Below, in pieces: positions 6,901-52,468 of a stretch of 64,000 nt of DNA. Position 1 is the first letter of the stretch. Every line of letters starts with the position of its first letter. A program made the position numbers and the translations under genes. Source of the DNA: Candidatus Latescibacterota bacterium (GTDB lineage: Bacteria; Latescibacterota; UBA2968); contig OZ242320.1 in assembly GCA_965208125.1 (NCBI GenBank), positions 1,536,001 to 1,600,000 of the forward strand, in the 5' to 3' direction. The notes under the pieces were generated by a model, which saw only the letters and a list, made by a program, of their open reading frames with translations, was not told where the DNA came from and searched no databases.

Positions 6901-8481
6901 TGGGGGCCGCTGGAAGACACGGCTTATGATTATGCGCAGATAAATTTCAAAGACAGAGGCGTCGTAACGCCCCGAAGCTGGTATATTGCGACAAGAGAAG
7001 ACAAAAAATCAAAAGCCGTATTGCGTTATAACAAGAAAAATTCCCGCGTCCAGGGTATCCTGGGGGCGTCACCCGAAGAAGCCCAGGTGACGCAGATCGA
7101 TACCCTGCTGCGAATCGGACGATGGTTTCAACCGGGCGAGTCTGCCTGTATTTTGCCCGATCGAGTAGCGGAGACCCTGGGTATAACGGCGCAAGATGTC
7201 GGCAAGGCGTACATCCGCCTCTTTGGCAAACCACTCACAGTAATCGGACTGATCAATTCTGAGAAAATGCGTCTGTTTGTCGATCTGGATGAAGAACAGA
7301 TAACACCGGCAGATTTTCAAGTCACCGAAGACGAATTTATCACCGTCATGTCTCAGACCGAGACCCGCGAACGGCAGGGATTGGAGCGCCCCGAAGTCGA
7401 AACCATGCCATTTGAACATCTGGATCCCGATGATATTTTAATCGTACCCTATGCCCTGTTGCGCGATGTGGGCAGTCCATTGCAGTCCGTAGCCGTGCGA
7501 TTTCACGAAGAAGTGGATGTAGAAGCCGAGATCAAATCATTCTTGTCGCGATTATCAGTGGTATTATTCGCCGGCATACCAACAGCAGATGGCGGCATAC
7601 GCGTCGCGGTTTACAGTTCCCTGGGCGATACCTCTTTGCAGGGCATGGCCAATTTGTTTATCCCCATTCTGGTCGCCGCGTTAATCGTACTCAACACCAT
7701 GATGGGATCGGTGTACGAACGCTTCCGCGAAATAAGCATCTATTCTTCCGTGGGATTAGCACCTGTACACATCGCCTTCTTGTTTATTGCCGAGGCATGT
7801 GTTTACGCGGTTTTGGGAACCGTTGGCGGGTATCTTTTGGGACAAAGCGTCGTCAAAATTTTACTGTGGCAAGATGCCTTACAGGGACTTACCGTGAATT
7901 ATTCGGCACTCTCGACCGTAACATCCTCAATGCTGGTCATGCTGGTGGTTCTGCTCTCGTCAATCTACCCCGCGCGCCAGGCATCCATGATGGCCGTACC
8001 CGACGTGACGCGCCGATGGAAATTCCCCGACCCAGACGGCGACCGCTGGCATTTTGAATTTCCATTTACCGTAGGCGGCAAAGACGTATTTGGCCTGTCC
8101 GTATTCCTCGTCGATTATTTCCAGGCGCATGCAGGTGAGAGCCTGGGCACATTTTACACAGATGGCGCGCGACTCGGCTCAGTTGAAACTGCAACCGGAC
8201 AGGGACATACAATTGACACGACAATCTGGTTGGCACCGTATGATCTGGGTGTGAGCCAGCAGGTGCATTTTGAAGCGATCCCCACAGGAGAACACAATAT
8301 TTTTGCCATGACATTGACCATAGATCGGCTATCCGGCGATGCCTCGTCATGGCGGCGGGTCAACAAAAACTTTATGAACGCGCTGCGCAAACAATTCCTC
8401 ATCTGGCGCACCGTAGCACCAGAAGATAAGGCGCAGTACACGGAAAAAGGACAGATGATACTCGCCGGGGCTACAGTCTAA
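3955..8481 (+). CDS. Large membrane protein: M28-like peptidase domain fused to FtsX/MacB-like ABC permease domains
   Basis: SRVPGYPG, NVLGWIEG, INAYYD and APGAE (M28-like N-terminus); two TM clusters; SVYERFREISIYSSVG...FIAE (FtsX C-terminal motif); ATG 3955 follows GAAAGGA. Confidence 0.75.
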   Translation: MSRRIGWLALIGIAVFGFGAVISGPGTVDPLLRNVLGLHPPEPVEPVPVPGAEVVADRVKREITEAEVRALMATFTQYKSRVPGYPGHDAAAQFIEQRFRALGLKNVETETYGVTSPVDEGSQLTIISSGEVFPLSGLWPNLVKTSTLPPGGVRTRLIDGGNGEFKVYDGKDVENTVVLLNFNTWNKWLNAAVLGAQQIIFIAPDTTSYTQAETKFLQVPNTVERFWIDREHGEKLRTLLADQGEIEIQLESRMPWKKNDAANVLGWIEGSDPVMKKKIVVINAYYDAMSVVPAQAPGAEMACGIVALMRLAEHFQAHRPKYTVIFLASSAHHLGFRGICDFLNRHSRKEEHFAALMTEPIDIDLFIGLDLSSQTDEIGVATQTAGFGVNTAVNYFSTRFFATFSKSFVRYATAIAEGMGVPSKDVMVDGINPKGGMTWDMYIPGENIKSDSEVVLYAGTPALSLTTVNDARFRVDTPLDRAEYINYANLTKQIRVLAGMLDLSFNDEEFLPDYKLDPIDRMRGLKGYVRTFPRRSITPDKSRPGAIAAMRMGLEKSIKGVRRIYYDLADENGEYYIPGVAERRVHVRAYYIDPHSGEITYAPNQGRQGKIYSGHFNMNWWITKQTVILFPCVATDFYGTVDPRYLNTLSNISVYGVGNTAPQEYGYDIGFGPDEPVGVVYTSPGEKVKIAMRAGAIGVRYLLLNSKSADTEWDARGEGFQTLSSGSLIRTPYQAARDMWILNESRMRKLRQYSIENQRLEVLHAQAKQHLDEAETALQEKQWDAFVKHTRAGMGIESRAYPDVKTTQNDVIRGVIFFMLLVIPCAFFLERLIFTFADIRMQIGGIGLVFVVIWIFLSQVHPAFDLSNPFVILLAFVILALAIFVISILSGRFNENIRRLRSAEVLLHETDVGRISASVAAFQLGIANMKKRKLRTWLTFATLVLLTFTVLSFTSIKSALEFHQLQRDTEGAYPGILIRSKFWGPLEDTAYDYAQINFKDRGVVTPRSWYIATREDKKSKAVLRYNKKNSRVQGILGASPEEAQVTQIDTLLRIGRWFQPGESACILPDRVAETLGITAQDVGKAYIRLFGKPLTVIGLINSEKMRLFVDLDEEQITPADFQVTEDEFITVMSQTETRERQGLERPEVETMPFEHLDPDDILIVPYALLRDVGSPLQSVAVRFHEEVDVEAEIKSFLSRLSVVLFAGIPTADGGIRVAVYSSLGDTSLQGMANLFIPILVAALIVLNTMMGSVYERFREISIYSSVGLAPVHIAFLFIAEACVYAVLGTVGGYLLGQSVVKILLWQDALQGLTVNYSALSTVTSSMLVMLVVLLSSIYPARQASMMAVPDVTRRWKFPDPDGDRWHFEFPFTVGGKDVFGLSVFLVDYFQAHAGESLGTFYTDGARLGSVETATGQGHTIDTTIWLAPYDLGVSQQVHFEAIPTGEHNIFAMTLTIDRLSGDASSWRRVNKNFMNALRKQFLIWRTVAPEDKAQYTEKGQMILAGATV

Positions 8482-42445: not shown

Positions 42446-44065
42446 ATGCTGCGAAACTATGTTCTACTCGTGATGACATTCATAACATTTGGACAGGCAG
42501 ACGCGGGATTGCTACCAGAAACCCCCAGTCCTCAAGGTGGGGATCTCACCGGTTCCTGGGTAGCCAGGAAATTCGAACTGAACGCTTATGTCCCGGCTGC
42601 GCTCGTGGAAGCAGTAAAGCCTCTTACAGTTGAAGGCGAGATCAACGGCACACTGATTTTGGATTCAGATGGCAGTATTCAAGCGAACTACGAGACAGTA
42701 GCCAATGTCTCTGCGTTATTATGGGTTCTACTTACGGTCACTGTACACGATACGAGCCAATACACAGGCAATTACACCGTCATGTCCGATACACATGAGC
42801 TCATCATAACACGCGAAAATGAAGATCCACTCAATTATACGTACACGGCTACGGCGGATTCACTGCATATTATACGTCCGCTTCTTTTAGATGAATTATT
42901 GGCGTCATTACCCGAATCTGTAAGAGACCTGGCACTGAGTTCGCTTTCTCATCTCGTTCCGCCAGATGATCCTATCAGGTTCGTGATCAGTTTTGCAAAA
43001 TCGGCAGATATAGGGACATCGAGTGTGCTAACGGGTGATTTTAATGGGAATGGTGTGGTTAATATTTCCGATTTTTTACTGTTTGTAACTCACTTCGAGA
43101 CAAGTCGTGGCGATAGGACGTATAACGCCAGGTATGATCTGGACAGCAACGGCGTAATTGGATTCTCCGATTTTCTGATCTTTGTCAACAACTTTGGTAA
43201 AGAGGCATCTTCCCCTGGCGGTGTTGCAACGATCGTTGCCATTCCGGATGAGAATCTGCTCGCTGTTATCGAGAATAGTCTCGACAAGGCGGAGGGTACT
43301 CCGATCACCAGAGGTGACATGGTGGCCTTAACGAACCTTGAGGCACCAAACAATAATATTCGCGATCTAACCGGACTTGAGTTTGCAATTAACCTGACAA
43401 AGCTGTCTCTTTACAACAACAGCATATCGGACATCACACCCCTTTCAAGATTGAACAGTCTGGAATGGCTGGTTCTTTCCAGCAACAGCATATCGGACAT
43501 CACACCCCTTCTGGGATTGAACAGTCTGGAATGGCTGTATCTTTCCAACAACAGCGTATCGAACATCACACCCCTTTCAAGATTGAACAATCTGGAATGG
43601 CTGTTTCTCGAAAGCAACAGCATATCGGACATCACACCCCTTTCAGGATTCAACAATCTGGAAGGACTGTATCTTTACAACAACAGCATATCGGACATCA
43701 CATCCCTTTCGGGATTGAACAGTCTAAGATTGCTGGATCTTGAAAACAACAGCATATCGGACATCACATCCCTTTCAGGATTGAACAGTCTGGAAAGGCT
43801 ATCTCTTCACAGCAACAGCATATCGGACCTCGCGCCCCTGGTCGCAAATACGGGATTGGGTAGTGGGGATTGGGTTTATGTGAGAAATAACCCGTTAAAT
43901 GCTACATCAATCAACACGCACATTCCAGCACTTCAGAGCAGAGGGATTAATGTGAGCTTTGGCGCGTCGAAGCCCGCGGCAGGTGAGCAAGAACGAGACA
44001 TATTCCGTTCCTTTAGGGAGGAACTGGGGAGAGGCCCCTCTCCACCACCGGCAACATCACCCTGA
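42446..44065 (+). CDS. Secreted protein with dockerin-like module and internalin-type LRRs
   Basis: DFNGNGVVN..DLDSNGVI; IPDENL cap; 22-aa NSISDITPLSxLNSLEWLxL repeats. Confidence 0.85.
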   Translation: MLRNYVLLVMTFITFGQADAGLLPETPSPQGGDLTGSWVARKFELNAYVPAALVEAVKPLTVEGEINGTLILDSDGSIQANYETVANVSALLWVLLTVTVHDTSQYTGNYTVMSDTHELIITRENEDPLNYTYTATADSLHIIRPLLLDELLASLPESVRDLALSSLSHLVPPDDPIRFVISFAKSADIGTSSVLTGDFNGNGVVNISDFLLFVTHFETSRGDRTYNARYDLDSNGVIGFSDFLIFVNNFGKEASSPGGVATIVAIPDENLLAVIENSLDKAEGTPITRGDMVALTNLEAPNNNIRDLTGLEFAINLTKLSLYNNSISDITPLSRLNSLEWLVLSSNSISDITPLLGLNSLEWLYLSNNSVSNITPLSRLNNLEWLFLESNSISDITPLSGFNNLEGLYLYNNSISDITSLSGLNSLRLLDLENNSISDITSLSGLNSLERLSLHSNSISDLAPLVANTGLGSGDWVYVRNNPLNATSINTHIPALQSRGINVSFGASKPAAGEQERDIFRSFREELGRGPSPPPATSP

Positions 44066-47000
44066 ACGTCGTGCCCACGCCCTGCTCGCTCTCCACCGCG
44101 ATCTCCCCATCGTGATTGCGAACAATGGCATAAATAATCGACAACCCCAAACCCGTACCCCGGTCTGCATCCTTAGTCGTAAAAAAAGGCTCAAAAAGAC
44201 GCTGCCGGATCGCCTCATCCATTCCAACCCCATTATCCTCCACCTCGACAACAACCGCATCGTCCTCACCCCGCGTTCTGATCCAGACCTGCTTATCATA
44301 CCCCGCCCCCTCCATCTCCGCCCGCTCATCCACTGCATCCCGGGCATTAGACAGCAAATTGAGAACCACCTGCTCAAGAGGATGCGGATGTCCCCAGACC
44401 TCTGGGAGCGCGTCAGAAAGATCCAGCCAGAGATCAATCCCGTGCCTTTCAAGCTGCGAACCCATCAACTTCAGACTGCTCTGTATCACCTCATTCACAA
44501 CCATCGCCTGGCGTGGCTCCTCGGACACATCGCGCGAAAACACACGCAAATGATCGACAGTACCTGCCATCCGACCAACCACACCCCGAACATCCTCCAT
44601 CATCTCCCTCAACTCGTCCGTCTCAAGTGGCATACCCTCCATCAGCCGCAGGGAAATATCTCCAGCAGTTGTCTCAACGGCGGTCAGCGGCTGGTTGAGC
44701 TCGTGTGCCACACCCGCAACCATCTGCCCCAGCGACACCAGACGTGCGGACTGCAAAAGCTGCGTCTCATTAGCAGCTGCAAGATCTTCATTCGCCTTCC
44801 GCAATTTCCGATCCCGAACAATAATCCGCGAAATCAGATAACCCGTAAGAATCACAAACCCCAGGATCAACCCGATAAACCACAGACGGCGCCACACCAG
44901 CGGAACAACATTGAACGACATCGCAGACGGTATGGGATCTTCATTAAACGCCAGATCGCGCGCTTTAACCTCCAGCGTATGCGTCCCCACATCCAGACCC
45001 TCAAAGGATAGGACCGTATCCCCGCCATAAGGCGACCACGCCCCACCATTCAAACGGTGGGCGTATTGCAGATCTTCGCGCAATGTACTTCGCCAGGCGT
45101 CTATCCCTGTCCACGCGAAAGTTATCTTTTCACCTTCAGAGACTTCATCCTGAACAATAGTCATCACGGTTTCAGGTGGATCTGTCTCTGGCACATATCG
45201 AATCGTACGCAGCGTACAGGACGCCACAACGCCCTCGGATTCTGACCGTTTGTGCCAGGCGCCTGTATCAGATACAAAATTGAGCCAGAGTGCTCCGTCT
45301 CCAGACTGGAGAATCGGATCATGGAACTCTGTGTGCGGAAGTCCGGAAGGTAAAGCCTGTGGCAACCATGCGCGCCCATCAAACCGGCTAACACCCCCTG
45401 CCGTCCCCACCCAGATCGCGCCATCCCGATCCTGAAAAATACTTCGCACCTCATTATCCGCCAGCCCATCGCCATAATCGAACTGCTGCCACGCCGTCCC
45501 ATCATACCGAAACACCCCATAAATTCGGGACCCCAACCACAGGTCCCCCTGAGTATAAACAGCATCAATAAAACCTCTGGTCAACTCCTCTGGTCCAGTA
45601 AATTGTACCTCTCGCACCCCATCAAAACCGAACAGCCTTCCGCCAAACCACAAAATCCCATCAGAACTCTGCCCGATCCCATAAGCATAACGCGTCATCT
45701 CCGGAGGAGTATAATGTGTCCATCTCACCCCATCAAAAACCACCACCCCACCGAGAAAGCCATCATATAACCACCAATCCACCGCCGCGGCAAACCACAG
45801 AGAACCGTCAAAAGCCTCATAAACCGCACGCGGATCAACACCCCAGGAAAGCTGGGGATGGCGATCCATAACCCATTCAGAACCATTCAACCGCGCTGTA
45901 GCGGCGACATACTCATGGCTACCCGCAGCCCACAACGCACCCTCTCGCGTCACAATCAACTTACCCGGCATATCCATCAAGCCATCCGCCACACCAAACC
46001 GCGTCCATCCCTGCGCATCACGACGCACAACACCGTTATCCTGCGAGATAAACCATTGCGCCCCATCGGGCGTATCGCACTGAAAAATGAGACCCTCATA
46101 AGTCTGCCAGTGCTTCCCACTCAAATCCAGACGCGCAGCTTCCTGTCCGCGGCCTATAATCCAGAGCGCGCCATCCGCCGCCTCGAAAAGTTCCATACGG
46201 TGCGACGGCAACGACACAACATCTTTCGAATCATAAACGCGCCACACACCATCCCTATAAGCAATCAAGCGACTACCACCAATCCAGAGCGTCCCATCCC
46301 GACTTTCTATGATAGACGTATAATGATGGTCGAGATCACCAACTTCAAGCACCTCCCACTTCTCGCCGTCAAACCGGTTGACACTTTTACTCTTATCGCC
46401 ATACACCACCCAAACGATACCGTCCTCTGTCACACACATCCTCGGATACACACCCTGATCGATCCCATCATCCCCACTAAAACGCTGATAACCCGATGCA
46501 AAATCAAAACGAATCAGATCGCCATCGTGCGTCCCAAACCAGATCGCCCCATTGGACCCTTCACACACATCATAAACCATCAACCTCCGATTGTCCAAAA
46601 CGCGATCTGGAACCACAACAAAAGTCACCGCATCGGATACCATCTCCCGAACACCTGTCGTATCCTCCGCAGCCACATACAACCTTACCCCATCTGGCGT
46701 CAACCTGAGCGCACCCCATTCCGTACCCACCCACAAACTCCCATCCTGTGCCTCCATCAAATCATAGGTATTCCATTCTCCCTCAGATGGAAATACCCAT
46801 TCCCACGCCCCATTCTCAAAACGACTAATACCCCGATCAGACCCCACATAAACACCGCCATCCCGGGCGACATAAAGCGCGTTGATCCGCGCCCCAACCA
46901 TCCCCTCATCAAACGGAAAGAGATGCCAACTTATCCCATCGTAGCGATAAATACCATCATCCGTCCCAAATAAAAAACTACCATCCCCATCCTCCACCAA

Positions 47001-47156
47001 ACACGACACGCCTTGCCCCTTCAACTCTGGAAAAGATCGCCAGCGCCAGGACTCATGCACAGGATCTGGATGACGAGGCGTAAAAGGCGTCGCCGCGAAA
47101 CACACACTCGCGCCCACAAGCATCAGAAGCATCAGACATTTTGTGCATTCAATCAT
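44013..47156 (-). CDS. Membrane sensor histidine kinase with beta-propeller and Y_Y_Y-like periplasmic region
   Basis: Signal peptide, propeller repeats, TM helix, AHELNQPL, NLLSNA, DNGVG, FFTTK, GTGLGL. Confidence 0.93.
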   Translation of the reverse strand: MIECTKCLMLLMLVGASVCFAATPFTPRHPDPVHESWRWRSFPELKGQGVSCLVEDGDGSFLFGTDDGIYRYDGISWHLFPFDEGMVGARINALYVARDGGVYVGSDRGISRFENGAWEWVFPSEGEWNTYDLMEAQDGSLWVGTEWGALRLTPDGVRLYVAAEDTTGVREMVSDAVTFVVVPDRVLDNRRLMVYDVCEGSNGAIWFGTHDGDLIRFDFASGYQRFSGDDGIDQGVYPRMCVTEDGIVWVVYGDKSKSVNRFDGEKWEVLEVGDLDHHYTSIIESRDGTLWIGGSRLIAYRDGVWRVYDSKDVVSLPSHRMELFEAADGALWIIGRGQEAARLDLSGKHWQTYEGLIFQCDTPDGAQWFISQDNGVVRRDAQGWTRFGVADGLMDMPGKLIVTREGALWAAGSHEYVAATARLNGSEWVMDRHPQLSWGVDPRAVYEAFDGSLWFAAAVDWWLYDGFLGGVVVFDGVRWTHYTPPEMTRYAYGIGQSSDGILWFGGRLFGFDGVREVQFTGPEELTRGFIDAVYTQGDLWLGSRIYGVFRYDGTAWQQFDYGDGLADNEVRSIFQDRDGAIWVGTAGGVSRFDGRAWLPQALPSGLPHTEFHDPILQSGDGALWLNFVSDTGAWHKRSESEGVVASCTLRTIRYVPETDPPETVMTIVQDEVSEGEKITFAWTGIDAWRSTLREDLQYAHRLNGGAWSPYGGDTVLSFEGLDVGTHTLEVKARDLAFNEDPIPSAMSFNVVPLVWRRLWFIGLILGFVILTGYLISRIIVRDRKLRKANEDLAAANETQLLQSARLVSLGQMVAGVAHELNQPLTAVETTAGDISLRLMEGMPLETDELREMMEDVRGVVGRMAGTVDHLRVFSRDVSEEPRQAMVVNEVIQSSLKLMGSQLERHGIDLWLDLSDALPEVWGHPHPLEQVVLNLLSNARDAVDERAEMEGAGYDKQVWIRTRGEDDAVVVEVEDNGVGMDEAIRQRLFEPFFTTKDADRGTGLGLSIIYAIVRNHDGEIAVESEQGVGTTFRVMLPVVERGLSPVPP

Positions 47157-47170
47157 ACTCAATCCATCCA

Positions 47171-47210
47171 TAAAAAAAGCGGCACTGGCGATAAATATCA
47201 CCAGCACCGC
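47171..47210 (-). terminator. Rho-independent terminator downstream of the Calx-beta gene
   Basis: GCGGTGCTGGTGAT-ATTT-ATCGCCAGTGCCGC followed by T7 on the minus strand. Confidence 0.8.
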
Positions 47211-47397: not shown

Positions 47398-49698
47398 TCA
47401 ATCGTTGTCCTCAACAGTCACGCTCGCCGAGAATGGACTACCCAATAAATTGTCATCACTGTCTTTCCATTGCGCGGTCAGGGTGACCACACTATCAGGC
47501 TCATCTACATCATCATCTATGGTCTTGATCGTAAGCGTGGTGGCGTTCTGAGTTCCACTAACCAGCACTTCGCCGCTCATGACATCGCCAGATTCGTCGA
47601 TACCTATACTTAGATTTCCCTGGGGTAAAGTAATCGTACTCGGGGAAATAATCGTAAAGGTCACATCCGTCCCTTCCGTCACAGGGGTAGTACCGGCAGA
47701 AATTGTCGTCTCTGAGAGATCGTTGTCTTGAACCGTCACACTCGCAGAAGAAGAACTACCCACTGCATAACCCGTACCAGCCTCCACTTCCGCAGTCACG
47801 CTGCTATTGATCTCACCTACATTATCATCGTCCGTATTGACCGTCAGCGTGGCAGTGGATTCGTTGGCGTTGATGGTCACCGATGAGGGTGCTGCCCCAC
47901 TGATCACAGCGCCATCCTCGGTCACGCTCACACTCACGGTTATTGCTGTTGTCGGAGCAGGGGATGCTGTAATCGTGAACGTCGCTGCCGTGCCCTCAGT
48001 CACAGGGGTAGTACCGGCAGAGATCGTCACTTGTGGGTGTTCGTTGTCGCTCACGGTCACACTCGCAGAAGAAGAACTACCCACATTATAACCTGTGCCA
48101 GTCGCCACTTGCGCGGTCACGATGCTATTGTTCTCACCTACATTATCATCGTCCGTATTAACCGTCAGCGTAGCAGTGGTCGCGTTGGCGTTGATGGTCA
48201 CCGATGAAGGTGCTGTACCACTGATCACAGCGCCATCCTCACTGACGCTCACATTCACTGTCAATGGGGAGGCTGGCGCAGGGGAAGCCGTGATTGTGAA
48301 CGTCGCTGCCGTACCCTCGGTCACAGGAGTAGTACCCGCAGAGATCGTCACTTGTGGGTGTTCGTTGTCGCTCACGGTCACACTCGCAGAGGAAGGACTA
48401 CCCACGGTATAACCTGTTCCGGTCTGCACTTCCGCCGTCACGATGCTATTGTTCTCACCTACATTATCATTATCCGTATTGACCCTCAGCGTGGCTGCGG
48501 ACTCGTTGGCGTCGATGGTCACCGATGAGGGTGCTGCCCCACTGATCACATCGCCATCCTCACTGACGTTCACATTCACCGTCAATGGGGAAGCTGACCG
48601 AGGGAACGCCGCGATTACAAAAACCGCTACCCTACCCTCAGTCACAGGTCCGCTAAGAGCTCGGATCGTCACCCTTGGGAGATCGTTATCCTCAACCGTC
48701 ACACTCGCAGAAGATGAACTGCCCACGGTATAACCTGTTCCGGTCTGCACTTCCGCCGTCACCACACTGTTAGACTCATCTGTCTTATCATTATCCGTAT
48801 TAACCGTCAGCGTAGCAGTGGACTCGTTGGCGTTGATGGTCACCGATGAGGGTGCTGTCCCACTGATCACATCGCCATCCTCGGTCACGCTCACACTCAC
48901 GGTTATTGCTGAGGTTGGCGCAGAGGATGCTGTGATCGTGAACGTCGCTGCCGTACCCTCCGTCACAGGGGTAGTACCCGCAGAGATCGTCACCTGTGGG
49001 GTCACCTGCTGTTGTCCGGTCGGCGGTGGGGGCGCAGGATCGTCATTATCCTCAACCGTCACACTCGCAGAGGAGGAACTGCCCACTGTATAGCCTGTCC
49101 CACTCTCCACTTCCGCTGTCACCACACTATTAGACTCATCTGCATCATCATCGTCCGTATTGACCGTCAGCGTAGCAGTGGACTCGTTGGCGTCGATGGT
49201 CACTGTCGAAGACGGCGTCCCACTGATCACATCGCCATCCTCGGTCACGCTCACACTCACGGTTATTGCTGAGGTCGGCGCAGAGGATGCCGTAATTGTA
49301 AACGTCGCTGACGTACCTTCCGTCACAGGTGAAGTACCCGCTGAAATTGTCACCTGTGGGGTCTCCTGTGGGGTCTCCTGCTGTTGCGAGGGCGAATCGT
49401 CGATGTTCACTGTCTTGCCCCAATTGGAAATCAAGATCCTGAGATCCAATTGGTTGATGACCCCATCGCCGTGCAGATCCAACTCCTCCTGCCAATTTGG
49501 TCCACCTGCTCGCGTTCCCCAATTGGAGATAAGGAGTCTTAAGTCCAATTCATCGACAATCCCATCGTCGTTAAAGTCCGAAGATGGCGGACTACTATCC
49601 TGTGAAAAAAGCGACAAAGGAGCAATCAAGAGCAGAAGGCTCAGAAAACTGGCGATACGGAGCGTGAAGTTGGGATACGAATTACGACTAATCATCAT
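47398..49698 (-). CDS. Secreted adhesin-like protein: dockerin-like module + six Calx-beta-like repeats
   Basis: GGAG RBS before ATG 49698; signal peptide; DFNDDGIVD..DLHGDGVI; ~107-aa VTISAGTTPVTEG...TDDD...ASVTVEDND repeats. Confidence 0.85.
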   Translation of the reverse strand: MMISRNSYPNFTLRIASFLSLLLLIAPLSLFSQDSSPPSSDFNDDGIVDELDLRLLISNWGTRAGGPNWQEELDLHGDGVINQLDLRILISNWGKTVNIDDSPSQQQETPQETPQVTISAGTSPVTEGTSATFTITASSAPTSAITVSVSVTEDGDVISGTPSSTVTIDANESTATLTVNTDDDDADESNSVVTAEVESGTGYTVGSSSSASVTVEDNDDPAPPPPTGQQQVTPQVTISAGTTPVTEGTAATFTITASSAPTSAITVSVSVTEDGDVISGTAPSSVTINANESTATLTVNTDNDKTDESNSVVTAEVQTGTGYTVGSSSSASVTVEDNDLPRVTIRALSGPVTEGRVAVFVIAAFPRSASPLTVNVNVSEDGDVISGAAPSSVTIDANESAATLRVNTDNDNVGENNSIVTAEVQTGTGYTVGSPSSASVTVSDNEHPQVTISAGTTPVTEGTAATFTITASPAPASPLTVNVSVSEDGAVISGTAPSSVTINANATTATLTVNTDDDNVGENNSIVTAQVATGTGYNVGSSSSASVTVSDNEHPQVTISAGTTPVTEGTAATFTITASPAPTTAITVSVSVTEDGAVISGAAPSSVTINANESTATLTVNTDDDNVGEINSSVTAEVEAGTGYAVGSSSSASVTVQDNDLSETTISAGTTPVTEGTDVTFTIISPSTITLPQGNLSIGIDESGDVMSGEVLVSGTQNATTLTIKTIDDDVDEPDSVVTLTAQWKDSDDNLLGSPFSASVTVEDND

Positions 49699-49772
49699 TT
49701 TTCTCCATAGACATATATGCAAACGTTCTCAGTTAGGGTGAAAGATCGACGGCAAATAAGCCGAGAATTAAC

Positions 49773-49806
49773 TCAATAACACCTAATTATACTTATACGG
49801 ATATAA
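49773..49806 (-). other. loxP-like recombination site A (inverted copy)
   Basis: Minus strand TTATATCCGTATA-AGTATAAT-TAGGTGTTATTGA; 49784-49801 is the exact reverse complement of 49927-49944. Confidence 0.7.
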
Positions 49807-49913
49807 GTTGCTTCGGCTATACTGAGAAGCAGATCAACCTTTTGCTTTGTTCTTTTTTAACGCTTAAATGGTTTCGTTTGTTGCGCGGTCACTGCCTCGC
49901 TAAACGTTTGTAT

Positions 49914-49942
49914 TTGACAAAATAATTCCGTATAAGTATAAT
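49914..49942 (+). promoter_or_regulatory. Perfect sigma70 promoter: -35 inside the putative invertible segment, -10 in the site spacer
   Basis: TTGACA (49914-19), N17, TATAAT (49937-42). Confidence 0.88.
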
Positions 49943-49955
49943 TATATGGATTAAA
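49922..49955 (+). other. loxP-like recombination site B
   Basis: ATAATTCCGTATA-AGTATAAT-TATATGGATTAAA; 13-8-13 layout; left arm matches loxP ATAACTTCGTATA at 11/13. Confidence 0.75.
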
Positions 49956-50043
49956 ATATCAGATTACCGAGCACAAAGCCGACAGCTTAACCCTCCGTAT
50001 AACCTGACAGTTAGCCACAGTCGAGCAGCTCAGGAGCGACTCT

Positions 50044-50982
50044 ATGCTACGAAATATCTCCCTACAATCTGCCCTCGACACCACGCCCGCGTCAATATCC
50101 ATCGACATGGCCCGATTGATGCAGGCCAGCATCGCGCCCAACACGGCGAAGGCGTACCACACTGCTCTTGACAAGCTGACCAAATATTTGAACGGGCGGC
50201 CACCAACCGACGGGACACTGGCCGACTACTTAGCCCACTTATATGCCAGAGGACTGGCGCCCGCTTCTATCGCCTTAGTGGTGCAAGCCATCCGCTTTTG
50301 GGAAAAAATAGAAGGCCGTCCATCGAGTGTTGGCCCGTTGACGACTCGCACCCTGGCCGGAATCCGCCGCGAAGGTCGAGGACGAGGCCGCGGCCAGGTA
50401 ACTGGATTGACCCGAGAGACGGTCAAACTCATGGCTCATAACGCCACCAAGACCGGCACCCTGGCCGGATTGAGAGACGCCGCCCTGTTGCGCGTGATGA
50501 GCGACGCCCTGTTGAGGATCGGCGAGGCTGTAGCCATCGACTGCGAGCACATCACGACCGAAGCCGACGGTACCGGACGACTTGAGATCCATCAGAGCAA
50601 AACCGACCAGAATGGGAAAGGCACGAGCCTCTACTTGACCACCCGCACCATTGATGCCATCCGCCAGTTGCAGGCCCGCGCTGGCTACAAGACCGGCCCT
50701 CTCTTTCGTCGGATGTTAAAGGGCGACCACATGAGCAACAACCGCTTGACAGTCGATGGTGCGCGATTAGCCATCAAAGCGTCCGCAAAGCAAGCCGGTA
50801 TTGCGGGCGTAAGCGGCCACAGCCTCCGAATTGGAACTGCCCAGGAGCTTGCCCAGCGCGGCGCTACCCTGGTCGAGTTGCAGAACGCCGGCCGCTGGAC
50901 AGATAGCCAGATGCCAGCCCACTATACCCGCAATCAGGCCGCAGGTAAGGGAGCCGTGGCCCGCTTGCTGCGAGATGACTAA
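50044..50982 (+). CDS. Cre-like tyrosine recombinase
   Basis: RDAALL..ALLRIGE (R), SKTDQ (K), SGHSLRIG (H-x-x-R), AGRW (W), HYTR (Y), C-terminal GAVARLL; AGGAG RBS. Confidence 0.92.
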   Translation: MLRNISLQSALDTTPASISIDMARLMQASIAPNTAKAYHTALDKLTKYLNGRPPTDGTLADYLAHLYARGLAPASIALVVQAIRFWEKIEGRPSSVGPLTTRTLAGIRREGRGRGRGQVTGLTRETVKLMAHNATKTGTLAGLRDAALLRVMSDALLRIGEAVAIDCEHITTEADGTGRLEIHQSKTDQNGKGTSLYLTTRTIDAIRQLQARAGYKTGPLFRRMLKGDHMSNNRLTVDGARLAIKASAKQAGIAGVSGHSLRIGTAQELAQRGATLVELQNAGRWTDSQMPAHYTRNQAAGKGAVARLLRDD

Positions 50983-51171: not shown

Positions 51172-51732
51172 ATGAACGATGCGGAATTGATTGCCCAGTT
51201 CCGAGCCGGGCAAATCGCGGCCTTTAACACCCTGGTCAAACGCTGGGAGTGTCCGATCTACAACTTTGTCCTGCGCTATGTGGGCAATCGCGACGACGCG
51301 CGCGACCTGTGTCAGCAAACCTTTATCCGCGCGTATAAAAACATGCGGCGCTTGCGCGACCCCGACAAATTCACCTCGTGGATCTATCAAATCGCGCTCA
51401 ACGCCTGCCGCGACGCTGGCCGCCGTCGCAGCCTCGTCTCCCTCGACACACTCGACACCCCTATAGCAGACACAACAACGCCCCCAGACGCGCTGATACA
51501 CGAACAAAGTGTTCGGGACCTGCTCAACCGCGCACTGCAAAACTTGCCCGAAGAACAGCGCATCGTCATCATCATGAAAGAATATCAGGGACTAAAATTC
51601 ACCGAAATTGCCGAAACACTCAAAGTGCCCATCAACACCGTCAAATCCAGAATGTATTACGGCCTCTCTGCCCTCAAAAAAATCTTTGACCGCTGGCACA
51701 TCAGCGAGGACATGGTGCGTTATGAACTGTGA
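51172..51732 (+). CDS. ECF RNA polymerase sigma factor
   Basis: DARDLCQQTFIRAY, FTSWIYQIALN, EIAETL.VPINTVKSR. Confidence 0.95.
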   Translation: MNDAELIAQFRAGQIAAFNTLVKRWECPIYNFVLRYVGNRDDARDLCQQTFIRAYKNMRRLRDPDKFTSWIYQIALNACRDAGRRRSLVSLDTLDTPIADTTTPPDALIHEQSVRDLLNRALQNLPEEQRIVIIMKEYQGLKFTEIAETLKVPINTVKSRMYYGLSALKKIFDRWHISEDMVRYEL

Positions 51733-52468
51733 CATCACCCGCGAACAAATAGTCGCCTACCTCTACGACGAAGACATCCGTCCAGAAGCGCGTGAACGCC
51801 TCAAAGTACACATCGAAACCTGCCCATTATGCAGCCAAACCCTTGAAGAACTGGGCAGCACATCCCGCATCCTCAATGCCTGGGGCGACGAAAAACCCGA
51901 CATGGACCTCGTCTTTGTACAGGAACGCCAAACCCTCTGGCAAAACCTGCTCCCCACGCGATACCCCAAAACCTGGGCAACTGCAGGCGTAGCCATCGCC
52001 GCAATCCTCATCTTCACCTTTCTCAACATCGAATTTGCCATACGAGACGGCGCATTCCACACCTCTATCGGCCTGCGATCCAGCGATCCTCCCGAGCAAA
52101 TCGCCATCACCGACACCACTGAAGCCCCCTCATTAGACGCCCCCATCACCCTCGGCGAATTTATCATCCATCAACAAAACTTGATCGACTACACCAATCG
52201 CCTCGTCCAAACATCGCAAAACCAGCAACGCAATGAAATCAACAACACTTTTATCCGCCTCGTAGGCGAACTCGAAACCCAACGTCAACAGGACCTCCTG
52301 CGCATAGACCGCGGGCTACAAATCCTCTACAACACACAGGAAACCCGCTATGGTCACATCCTGCGACAAATAGCTCCTGTTTATAATAAAGAAGCTGTTG
52401 AAGTTAAAGAAATCCCCATAGATAACCGACCATACCGCACGATTCCCACAAGAGGGAAAACCCCATGA
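51722..52468 (+). CDS. Zinc-finger (zf-HC2) transmembrane anti-sigma factor
   Basis: MNC...HIETCPLC, one TM helix; overlaps the sigma gene end. Confidence 0.85.
   Translation: MNCDITREQIVAYLYDEDIRPEARERLKVHIETCPLCSQTLEELGSTSRILNAWGDEKPDMDLVFVQERQTLWQNLLPTRYPKTWATAGVAIAAILIFTFLNIEFAIRDGAFHTSIGLRSSDPPEQIAITDTTEAPSLDAPITLGEFIIHQQNLIDYTNRLVQTSQNQQRNEINNTFIRLVGELETQRQQDLLRIDRGLQILYNTQETRYGHILRQIAPVYNKEAVEVKEIPIDNRPYRTIPTRGKTP

Follow-up and report, generated by a model that had tools for sequence, protein, structure and literature searches.

A Cre-like recombinase gene beside two inverted lox-like sites forms a probable invertible promoter switch in a Latescibacterota genome

Invertible promoters operated by tyrosine recombinases are already known, as are Cre-type enzymes. 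For example, the fimS element of Escherichia coli is an invertible promoter flipped by the adjacent tyrosine recombinases FimB and FimE; its repeats are 9 bp long, and the element of about 314 bp carries the whole promoter inside it. In Bacteroides fragilis, Tsr tyrosine recombinases carry out promoter inversions that control outer-surface and SusC/SusD-family proteins, and we know of no description of lox-like 13-8-13 sites (two 13-bp arms around an 8-bp spacer) in these systems. The Rci/sfx shufflon of IncI plasmids uses an inversion-specialised tyrosine recombinase and sites with only one conserved arm; with its many sites, a shufflon reorders parts of the coding sequence of a pilus tip gene. 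RecV of Clostridioides difficile is a tyrosine recombinase that inverts the flagellar and cwpV switches (PMC7446863). Here, we describe a locus of Candidatus Latescibacterota bacterium (Bacteria; Latescibacterota; UBA2968; GenBank assembly GCA_965208125.1) in which the gene for a Cre-like tyrosine recombinase adjoins two inverted lox-like sites, and we propose that this locus is probably an invertible promoter, or phase-variation, switch run by the adjacent Cre-like invertase. The window that we analysed is a stretch of 64,000 nucleotides (contig OZ242320.1, positions 1,536,001 to 1,600,000 of the forward strand), and coordinates are those of the window unless given in Mb.

The recombinase gene (50044..50982, plus strand) was identified from its open reading frame (ORF), a Pfam match, alignment with Cre and predicted fold, and encodes a putative invertase of 312 amino acids (aa). 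The site nearest to it is site B (49922-49955, plus strand), which reads ATAATTCCGTATA / AGTATAAT / TATATGGATTAAA and consists of an inner arm at 49922-49934, a spacer (AGTATAAT) at 49935-49942 and an outer arm at 49943-49955. Its distal inverted partner, site A (49773-49806, minus strand), has its outer arm at 49773-49785, its spacer at 49786-49793 and its inner arm at 49794-49806. The reverse complement of the site A spacer is identical to the site B spacer (8/8), and the two inner arms agree at 10/13 positions. An inverted repeat of 27 nt and 85% identity, with a perfect 17-nt core and 107 nt between its arms, covers these parts of both sites (49784-49810 / 49918-49944). The 15-nt core CCGTATAAGTATAAT has exactly two copies at up to one mismatch in the 5.75-Mb single-contig genome, one per strand and 142 bp apart. 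Within the window, the core at up to two mismatches has 3 matches compared to 0.05 expected, a count that none of 100 shuffles reached. Looser patterns returned no further partner sites genome-wide (8+5 matches, compared to 9+8 for a reversed-pattern control), and no direct-repeat partner was found anywhere in the genome. The locus thus has the hallmark of an inverton, namely inverted repeats around a short intergenic segment beside a recombinase gene, with a pair that is unique in the genome. Because the two chromosomal sites are inverted relative to each other, their natural reaction is expected to be inversion. Separately, an isolated two-mismatch match to the core (CCGTGTACGTATAAT; 42834-42848, minus strand) has neither a partner nor a lox-like layout and probably arose by chance.

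A first-pass annotation of this DNA, whose interval (49922..50982) does not take in site A, had drawn attention to site B as a near-loxP site. Its 13-8-13 layout and the 11/13 match of its left, inner arm to the lox 5' repeat were both confirmed from the sequence; the second arm matches lox at 8/13 and the spacer at 1-2 of 8 positions. The genome contains 60 13-mers that match a lox arm at 11/13 or better, so a match of this quality is by itself weak evidence. The signal that is not due to chance is the paired inverted core beside the recombinase gene, not the lox-arm match alone. In a related strain from sequencing run X5, one contig (depth 10.5) has a T>C change at 49926, with which the inner arm of site B would match lox at 12/13. 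This contig has 19 differences over 528 nt, and among the 40 of 80 rows of differences listed, none lies in the cores shared by sites A and B.

The putative invertible segment, delimited by the inverted repeat and by inversion in silico, comprises the 141 bp between the spacers, inner arms included (49794..49934). A consensus scan places a sigma-70-type promoter, TTGACA-17-TATAAT, at 49914..49942 on the plus strand, facing the recombinase gene and matching the consensus at 12/12 positions. Its -35 hexamer (49914-49919) lies inside the segment, and its -10 hexamer is made up of the last six bases of the site B spacer. On the opposite side of the segment is a divergent gene (47398..49722, minus strand), the putative switched gene, which encodes a secreted protein with Dockerin_1, PKD_4 and LapA matches and Ig/PKD-like repeats. 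Read from the sequence, its likely start is the ATG at 49698, with GGAG ahead of it, and its N-terminus resembles a signal peptide. The hexamer now found 17 nt upstream of the site A -10 is GAAGCA. When 49794-49934 is inverted in silico, an exact TTGACA-17-TATAAT is rebuilt on the minus strand beside site A, facing the dockerin gene, and the recombinase gene is left with GAAGCA-17-TATAAT. No terminator was called in the segment, and RNA folding of 49800-49925 gave z-scores of about 0 on both strands.

By homology with Cre, the recombinase would bind the arms of the two inverted 34-bp lox-like sites and synapse them, and strand exchange inside their identical spacer core, GTATAA, would then invert the 141-bp segment. 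Only the -35 (TTGACA) would travel with the segment, with a -10 (TATAAT) waiting in each spacer. In the assembled orientation, the full promoter would serve the recombinase gene, and the divergent dockerin/Ig-repeat gene would have GAAGCA-17-TATAAT. In the inverted orientation, a consensus promoter would drive the surface protein gene, with about 80 nt of leader, and the weak version would fall to the recombinase gene. If these consensus matches act as promoters, the predicted outcome is heritable ON/OFF heterogeneity of the surface protein within the population, with expression of the recombinase tied to the state of the switch. Bound recombinase probably also represses the promoter, both arms overlapping it. 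The outer arm of site A is indeed degenerate, as had been noted in the first-pass annotation (6/13 to the site B outer arm, with an internal symmetry of 5/13), but the idea that it could impose directionality is not supported. Exchange in the spacers swaps the inner arms only and leaves the outer arm of either site in place whichever way the segment lies, and directionality of the kind obtained with left-element/right-element arm mutants does not follow; in relatives, both orientations are found.

These relatives provide the strongest evidence for a switch. We compared 16 loci whose recombinases are 73-78% identical to the window protein (L023-L036, L038 and L039), calling orientation by BLASTN of the 1.5-kb upstream regions against L024 and then reading the junctions directly. 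In nine loci (L024, L027, L028, L029, L031, L033, L034, L035 and L038), the end of the segment that carries the -35, marked by a conserved TTGACT, abuts the recombinase-proximal site. In L023, L025 and L026, the entire segment of 370-580 nt is reverse-complemented between flanks that are both collinear, and TTGACT adjoins the distal site, directed toward the divergent gene. L039 has an inverted proximal junction only, its distal flank being rearranged; L030 and L032 were too short to be scored, and L036 is without a recognisable site. The breakpoints fall in the TCATAT/ATATGA cores of both sites. On a maximum-likelihood tree of the leader and adjacent gene (16 rows, 13 of them labelled), orientation changes at least three times, as forced by well-supported branches, and the same tree still implies two changes when L039 is left out. 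Inversion has therefore recurred at the homologous sites of these relatives. Collagen triple-helix repeats, sometimes with Big_2, characterise the lipoprotein encoded by the divergent gene of this group (N-terminus examined in 8 loci, Pfam in 3), and the flank-side arm of the distal site is about as poor as in the window, at about 6/13 by eye.

The genomes of this group may lie outside the phylum of the window genome, as no recombinase match at 76-78% identity was found among the 168 genomes sampled from that phylum. Submitters have named one tight clade partly Latescibacterota and partly Gemmatimonadota, and for this reason we do not claim horizontal transfer between phyla. Several other features of the group were observed. 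The segment, which varies from 205 to 580 nt in length, is full of degenerate short repeats (GTCAGGCAGGA/GTCAGGTATGA) in variable number (L024 3260-3560 and the same region of L025-L038), and these repeats could be protein-binding sites. Between the proximal site and the recombinase start lies a conserved leader of about 385 nt (L024 3620-4000, likewise in L023-L039), compared to about 95 nt in the window clade. This longer leader contains a second promoter-like sequence, TTGACC-N17-TACCTT, is without an Rfam match, and might be a regulatory RNA or an untranslated region. An Rfam scan of L005, L024 and L031 gave nothing relevant, with a single match elsewhere that scored far below the gathering score.

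The closest relatives of the window locus share its arrangement. In the genus, only one of 20 genomes (G006, represented by loci L021 and L015) has a close copy, with a recombinase 93% identical to that of the window and the same order of features. The arms of its inverted repeat, a perfect 15-mer, are separated by 177 nt, and both spacers are AGTATAGT, compared to AGTATAAT for both spacers in the window. The dockerin protein encoded by the divergent gene of L021 is a different one and also has cadherin and fn3 domains; only the first ~110 nt are homologous between the two dockerin genes, and the genes flanking the module also differ. Directly behind the dockerin/cadherin/fn3 gene of G006 is a DDE transposase gene (L015 6859-7644). 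In L037 (recombinase 83% identical), the two sites are 364 nt apart and the divergent gene product is a FlgD_ig/Por_Secre_tail protein of 894 aa. Within each pair, the central 6 bp agree, being GTATAA in the window and GTATAG in both L021 and L037. L022 (also 83%) has spacers that differ at 2/8 positions and appears decayed. Segment ends homologous to those of the window are conserved in L021, L037 and L022.

A second family, of paralogues 47% identical to the window recombinase, was found in several genomes from the genus, with sites quite different from those of the window. Its proximal site is a perfect 13-8-13 palindrome, TTTATTTCCGATA-N8-TATCGGAAATAAA (13/13), with an inverted partner about 260 nt away, and its divergent gene encodes a TonB-dependent receptor-like protein. 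The cores are GTTGGA in L016, GTGGAT in L017 and GTTGAT in L019, each identical in both partner sites. Variation of cores between genomes together with identity within pairs is what strand exchange by tyrosine recombinases requires. Across the loci compared, the divergent gene always encodes a secreted or surface-type protein, though the cargo changes. L018 (G015, 7400-8050) retains only the gene-side half of the proximal palindrome, its upstream sequence being unrelated to that of L016, L017 and L019, and looks like a switch that was disrupted, perhaps by insertion. Two genomes from another family of the same class, G102 and G103, each have 5-6 recombinase paralogues that are 41-49% identical to the window protein, and these sets may represent several independent switches per genome.

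The relationship of the recombinase to Cre is evident at several levels. Pfam PF00589 (Phage_integrase, the tyrosine-recombinase catalytic domain) matches the 312-aa ORF product at 1.9e-14, with weak SAM-like matches at the N-terminus. BLASTP against P1 Cre, which was taken together with both lox halves from record AF234172, aligned residues 20-311 (about 290 positions) at 28% identity (E 6e-17). All four motif pairs that had been quoted as mirroring Cre are present in this alignment, and the Trp expected in place of the second His is also there, with W285 aligning with Cre W315. The complete catalytic set of Cre (R173, K201, H289, R292, W315 and Y324) corresponds to R158, K186, H259, R262, W285 and Y294, and these six residues are invariant across 43 aligned homologues with 47-95% identity. 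In a sequence search of the PDB at E<=0.01, 17 of the 18 matches were Cre or Cre-derived (best E 4.5e-14), the sole other being an archaeal XerC-like protein (E 0.0094). Similarly, for an AlphaFold2 model of the recombinase (pLDDT 81, pTM 0.63), Foldseek ranks 1-32 were all Cre or Tre chains (E 1.9e-15, TM 0.62-0.72), followed by an integron integrase (6.3e-10) and then XerA, XerH and lambda Int. Thus, by sequence and by fold, the nearest solved relative is Cre. Among phage records, 25 of 50,697 match the recombinase at E<=1e-5, and 22 of the 25 are Cre or Cre orthologues. The only named NCBIfam families to match were Xer models (XerA 4.3e-15 and XerD 1e-13, at 51-56 bits compared to cut-offs of 220-330 bits), and the Xer family models as a whole gave 34-56 bits compared to cut-offs of 220-335 bits.

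Catalytic residues, size, target site, phylogeny and recombination of the predicted site without accessory factors are among the properties by which Cre-type recombinases have been delimited (Jelicic et al. 2023, PMC10250229). The window protein has equivalents of all six catalytic residues, and, at 312 aa and with Cre as its closest characterised relative in the PDB, fold and phage matches, it agrees with the expectation of a protein of 300-400 aa that is nearest to Cre (PMC10250229). The target site described there is a palindrome within 1 kb with half-sites of 13-15 bp, at most 2 asymmetries and an 8-bp spacer (PMC10250229). Site B has the 13-8-13 geometry and lies about 90 bp upstream of the gene, but its arms are symmetric at 9/13 (4 asymmetries) and those of site A at 5/13 (8 asymmetries), so neither is a palindrome of this quality; the proximal site of the 47%-identical paralogue is one.

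For the phylogeny, we built a tree of 32 rows, comprising the window protein, 16 homologues, Cre, Dre, five plasmid or phage relatives, XerC, XerD, FimB and FimE of E. coli, and four tyrosine recombinases from the window's own genome; Vika, VCre, SCre and Rci were left out. The search behind it found 756 homologues at E<=1e-5 among 8000 scored candidates. Full-length clusters at 73-95% identity account for 58 of the 120 that were listed, and the 16 used in the tree were picked from these 120 to cover 47-91% identity. The family of the window protein forms its own clade of 17 rows (support 96/99). This clade falls inside a supergroup of 24 rows with Cre, Dre and the plasmid and phage enzymes (94/99), separate from the Xer and Fim proteins, and its link to the subgroup that contains Cre is weak (71/83), in a tree with long branches and one fragmentary own-genome row. 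In this tree, the protein thus falls with Cre at the level of the supergroup and lies outside the Cre/Dre clade, in a family of its own. The label "Cre-like" is justified, and "member of the Cre/Dre clade" is not.

The genes around the switch include a histidine kinase, the dockerin protein and an extracytoplasmic function (ECF) sigma/anti-sigma pair, and none of the five proteins scanned showed a phage or plasmid function. Directly downstream of the recombinase gene (51172-52468) is an ECF sigma factor (Sigma70_r2/r4_2) together with a zf-HC2 anti-sigma candidate. Behind the dockerin gene (44013-47207, minus strand) is a 1064-aa histidine kinase with Reg_prop repeats. The genome has a very strong GC skew, up to about +/-0.2, with clean switches near 1.95 Mb (the cumulative minimum) and 4.95 Mb (the maximum); the two arms thus differ in length, at about 3.0 and 2.75 Mb. 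A distance of about 0.36 Mb separates the locus (1.586 Mb) from the minimum, and the maximum is far away. The genome also contains three Xer-like genes that match more strongly (E 1e-40 to 1e-47), two of which group with E. coli XerC/XerD in the tree.

Several observations weigh against the proposed switch. No inversion was seen at the window locus or in its closest clade, as the window, L021 (93%) and L037 (83%) all have the -35 toward the recombinase gene. Logan contigs from four runs and two samples span the sites in the assembled orientation (X1 49504-50140, X3 from 49498, X4 49624-50140 and X5 49613-50140), and no strand-change joint was found at the sites in these contigs. With depths of 4-10x, and with minority forms being dropped in contigs, this single orientation is weak counter-evidence. 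A scan of metagenome contigs contributed one locus only, L039. Runs labelled sponge or marine metagenome contained no more than small shares (0.09-0.28), and we claim no habitat from them. The orientation differences in the 73-78% group are differences between species, which indicate recurrent inversion and not fast switching within a population, and the -10 of that group is imperfect and was not called by the promoter scan. In the window, that scan gave 2 sites compared to 1.7 expected in shuffles, and it used a sigma-70-type consensus that may not be the promoter preference of the host. The sites themselves are imperfect, with the site A outer arm at 5/13 and the site B arms at 9/13, and this poor symmetry means that binding of four protomers is not assured. 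Finally, L022 demonstrates that switches of this type can decay.

One interpretation of these observations is that the switch is decayed or locked, with recombination prevented by the degeneracy of the site A outer arm and the promoter fixed on the recombinase side. We consider this unlikely, although it is the best of the alternatives. It would account for the finding of one orientation only, in the contigs of the four runs as in the window, L021 and L037, and the outer arm (5-6 of 13) and the example of L022 are compatible with it. However, the ORF of the recombinase is unbroken and keeps every invariant residue, the spacers are still identical at 8/8 and the inner arms still agree at 10/13. 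Moreover, relatives with both orientations also have a poor flank-side arm at their distal site (about 6/13 by eye), which argues that the working design includes a weak outer arm.

Somewhat less probable still is that the locus belongs to a phage, a plasmid or an integrated element as a Cre/loxP-type module for resolution or cyclisation, resolving multimers or excising and integrating DNA at a single cognate site (site B), with site A incidental. Cre and Dre have sites a short way upstream of their genes, with lox ending ~420 nt before cre and rox ~150 nt before dre. Plasmids carry many homologues at 27-32% identity: at E<=1e-8 there are 384 matching plasmid records, with at most 32.5% identity among the 30 listed. 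The gene is also patchily distributed, with any homologue found in 8/20 genomes of the genus and in 18/168 of the phylum sample, and the genes flanking the module differ between the window genome (G000) and G006, so the module may move. Against this stand the chromosomal setting, with no phage or plasmid function among the five proteins scanned, and the lack of a direct-repeat partner anywhere in the genome. In addition, sites A and B, inverted relative to each other, have a perfect 17-nt core in common and identical spacers; pairs of this kind are found again in relatives, with inversion of the segment that they enclose. We see the enzyme and site noted in the first-pass annotation not as a self-contained Cre/loxP-type unit of a phage or plasmid but as part of a chromosomal inverted pair around a promoter element.

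A very improbable alternative is a pair of divergent promoters with a shared operator, in which the repeat is a duplicated palindrome for a regulator, the recombinase gene merely lies nearby and no rearrangement takes place. Both copies of the repeat hold an outward-facing -10-like hexamer (TATAAT), and no inversion was seen at the window locus. This explanation leaves unaccounted for the 13-8-13 lox-like geometry beside a Cre-like enzyme, the 6-bp cores that are equal within pairs and different between genomes, and the finding in relatives of inverted segments whose breakpoints lie at the repeats. In XerS and XerH systems, the dif site adjoins the recombinase gene. Such an arrangement, in which a single Xer-type recombinase would resolve chromosome dimers at site B as its dif, fits the adjoining site and the Xer models as the only named NCBIfam matches, but was rejected as barely credible, given scores far below the Xer cut-offs (34-56 compared to 220-335 bits), a position at neither cumulative GC-skew extreme (1.586 Mb compared to ~1.95 and ~4.95 Mb), three stronger Xer-like genes in the genome, two of them grouping with XerC/XerD, and no homologue found in 12/20 genomes of the genus.

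We return to the invertible promoter switch as the preferred explanation and tentatively extend it to the relatives, a step on which we are close to evenly divided and lean slightly against. According to this extension, there may be a family of chromosomal Cre-like invertases, in up to 5-6 copies per genome, each of which co-evolves with its own lox-like pair, with distinct arms and cores. Each would form a split-promoter toggle whose movable -35 serves either the recombinase or a gene for a eukaryote-like surface protein, such as a dockerin/cadherin/fn3 protein, a collagen-repeat lipoprotein or a TonB-dependent receptor. If this is correct, uncultured symbionts of the Latescibacterota type would have phase-variable host-facing surfaces, and the family would offer a natural panel of mutually orthogonal Cre-like recombinase/site pairs that are used in nature for inversion.

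At the level of the window locus, the switch, if real, would provide a concrete mechanism by which uncultured symbionts vary their eukaryote-like surface proteins. Eukaryote-like surface proteins of symbionts have been linked to escape from phagocytosis by sponges, according to one report (PMC13747020). The locus and its relatives would also supply several natural recombinase/site pairs with different arms and cores as candidates for orthogonal tools. Comparative genomics already indicates recombination at such pairs, which would make them better starting points for tools than predictions from palindromes only. The split promoter, whose -35 would move and whose -10 sits in the crossover spacer, would couple expression of the invertase to the state of the switch and is a candidate for a compact synthetic toggle. 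In the literature, we found no account of a Cre-like enzyme that inverts promoters on a chromosome, although supplementary tables may list such loci. Nor, outside supplementary tables, did we find a description of phase variation in Latescibacterota or sponge-type symbionts, or of a family of co-evolving Cre-like invertase/site pairs set in uncultured genomes titled Latescibacterota. The main text of the DeepInverton paper contains neither "Latescibacter" nor "sponge" (PMC11602134).

The window recombinase shares its fold with Cre/loxP of P1 and Dre/rox of D6, which include its nearest sequence relations among solved structures. The recombinase has the catalytic hexad of Cre, including Trp for the second His, and the C-terminal GAxxRLL helix motif; site B, which lies a short way upstream of the gene, is laid out 13-8-13 like loxP and has an arm that matches lox at 11/13. 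In contrast to Cre and Dre, the window protein, at 28% identity to Cre, belongs to a separate clade and is chromosomal, not phage-borne. In place of loxP, the window has two inverted sites 149 bp apart whose spacer is unrelated (1-2 of 8), and their arms are imperfect (9/13 and 5/13), whereas those of lox are perfect repeats. The natural reaction here would be inversion of a promoter element, not the cyclisation or dimer resolution for which Cre serves.

The inverting systems resemble the locus in other respects. For Rci/sfx, the likeness would lie in a tyrosine recombinase specialised for inversion and in sites with one conserved arm, and Rci-bearing plasmids were not prominent among the plasmid matches of the window recombinase. 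The Tsr systems of B. fragilis resemble the proposed switch in that promoters of surface or outer-membrane genes are inverted, and they differ in phylum and in recombinase family; the 47%-identical paralogues here lie beside a TonB-dependent receptor-like gene. RecV, like the proposed switch, reversibly inverts short regulatory segments upstream of surface-related operons (PMC7446863), but it acts in trans on several switches, whereas here each pair appears to have one enzyme encoded in cis and the core is unique in the genome. The fimS element would share with the proposed switch a short invertible promoter element, an adjacent tyrosine recombinase, a surface output and imperfect half-sites. 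FimB and FimE, at about 200 aa, are far from the window recombinase in the tree, and the design proposed here differs from that of fimS in that only the -35 would move, with the -10 duplicated in the spacers, so that the same promoter would serve the recombinase and its target gene alternately.

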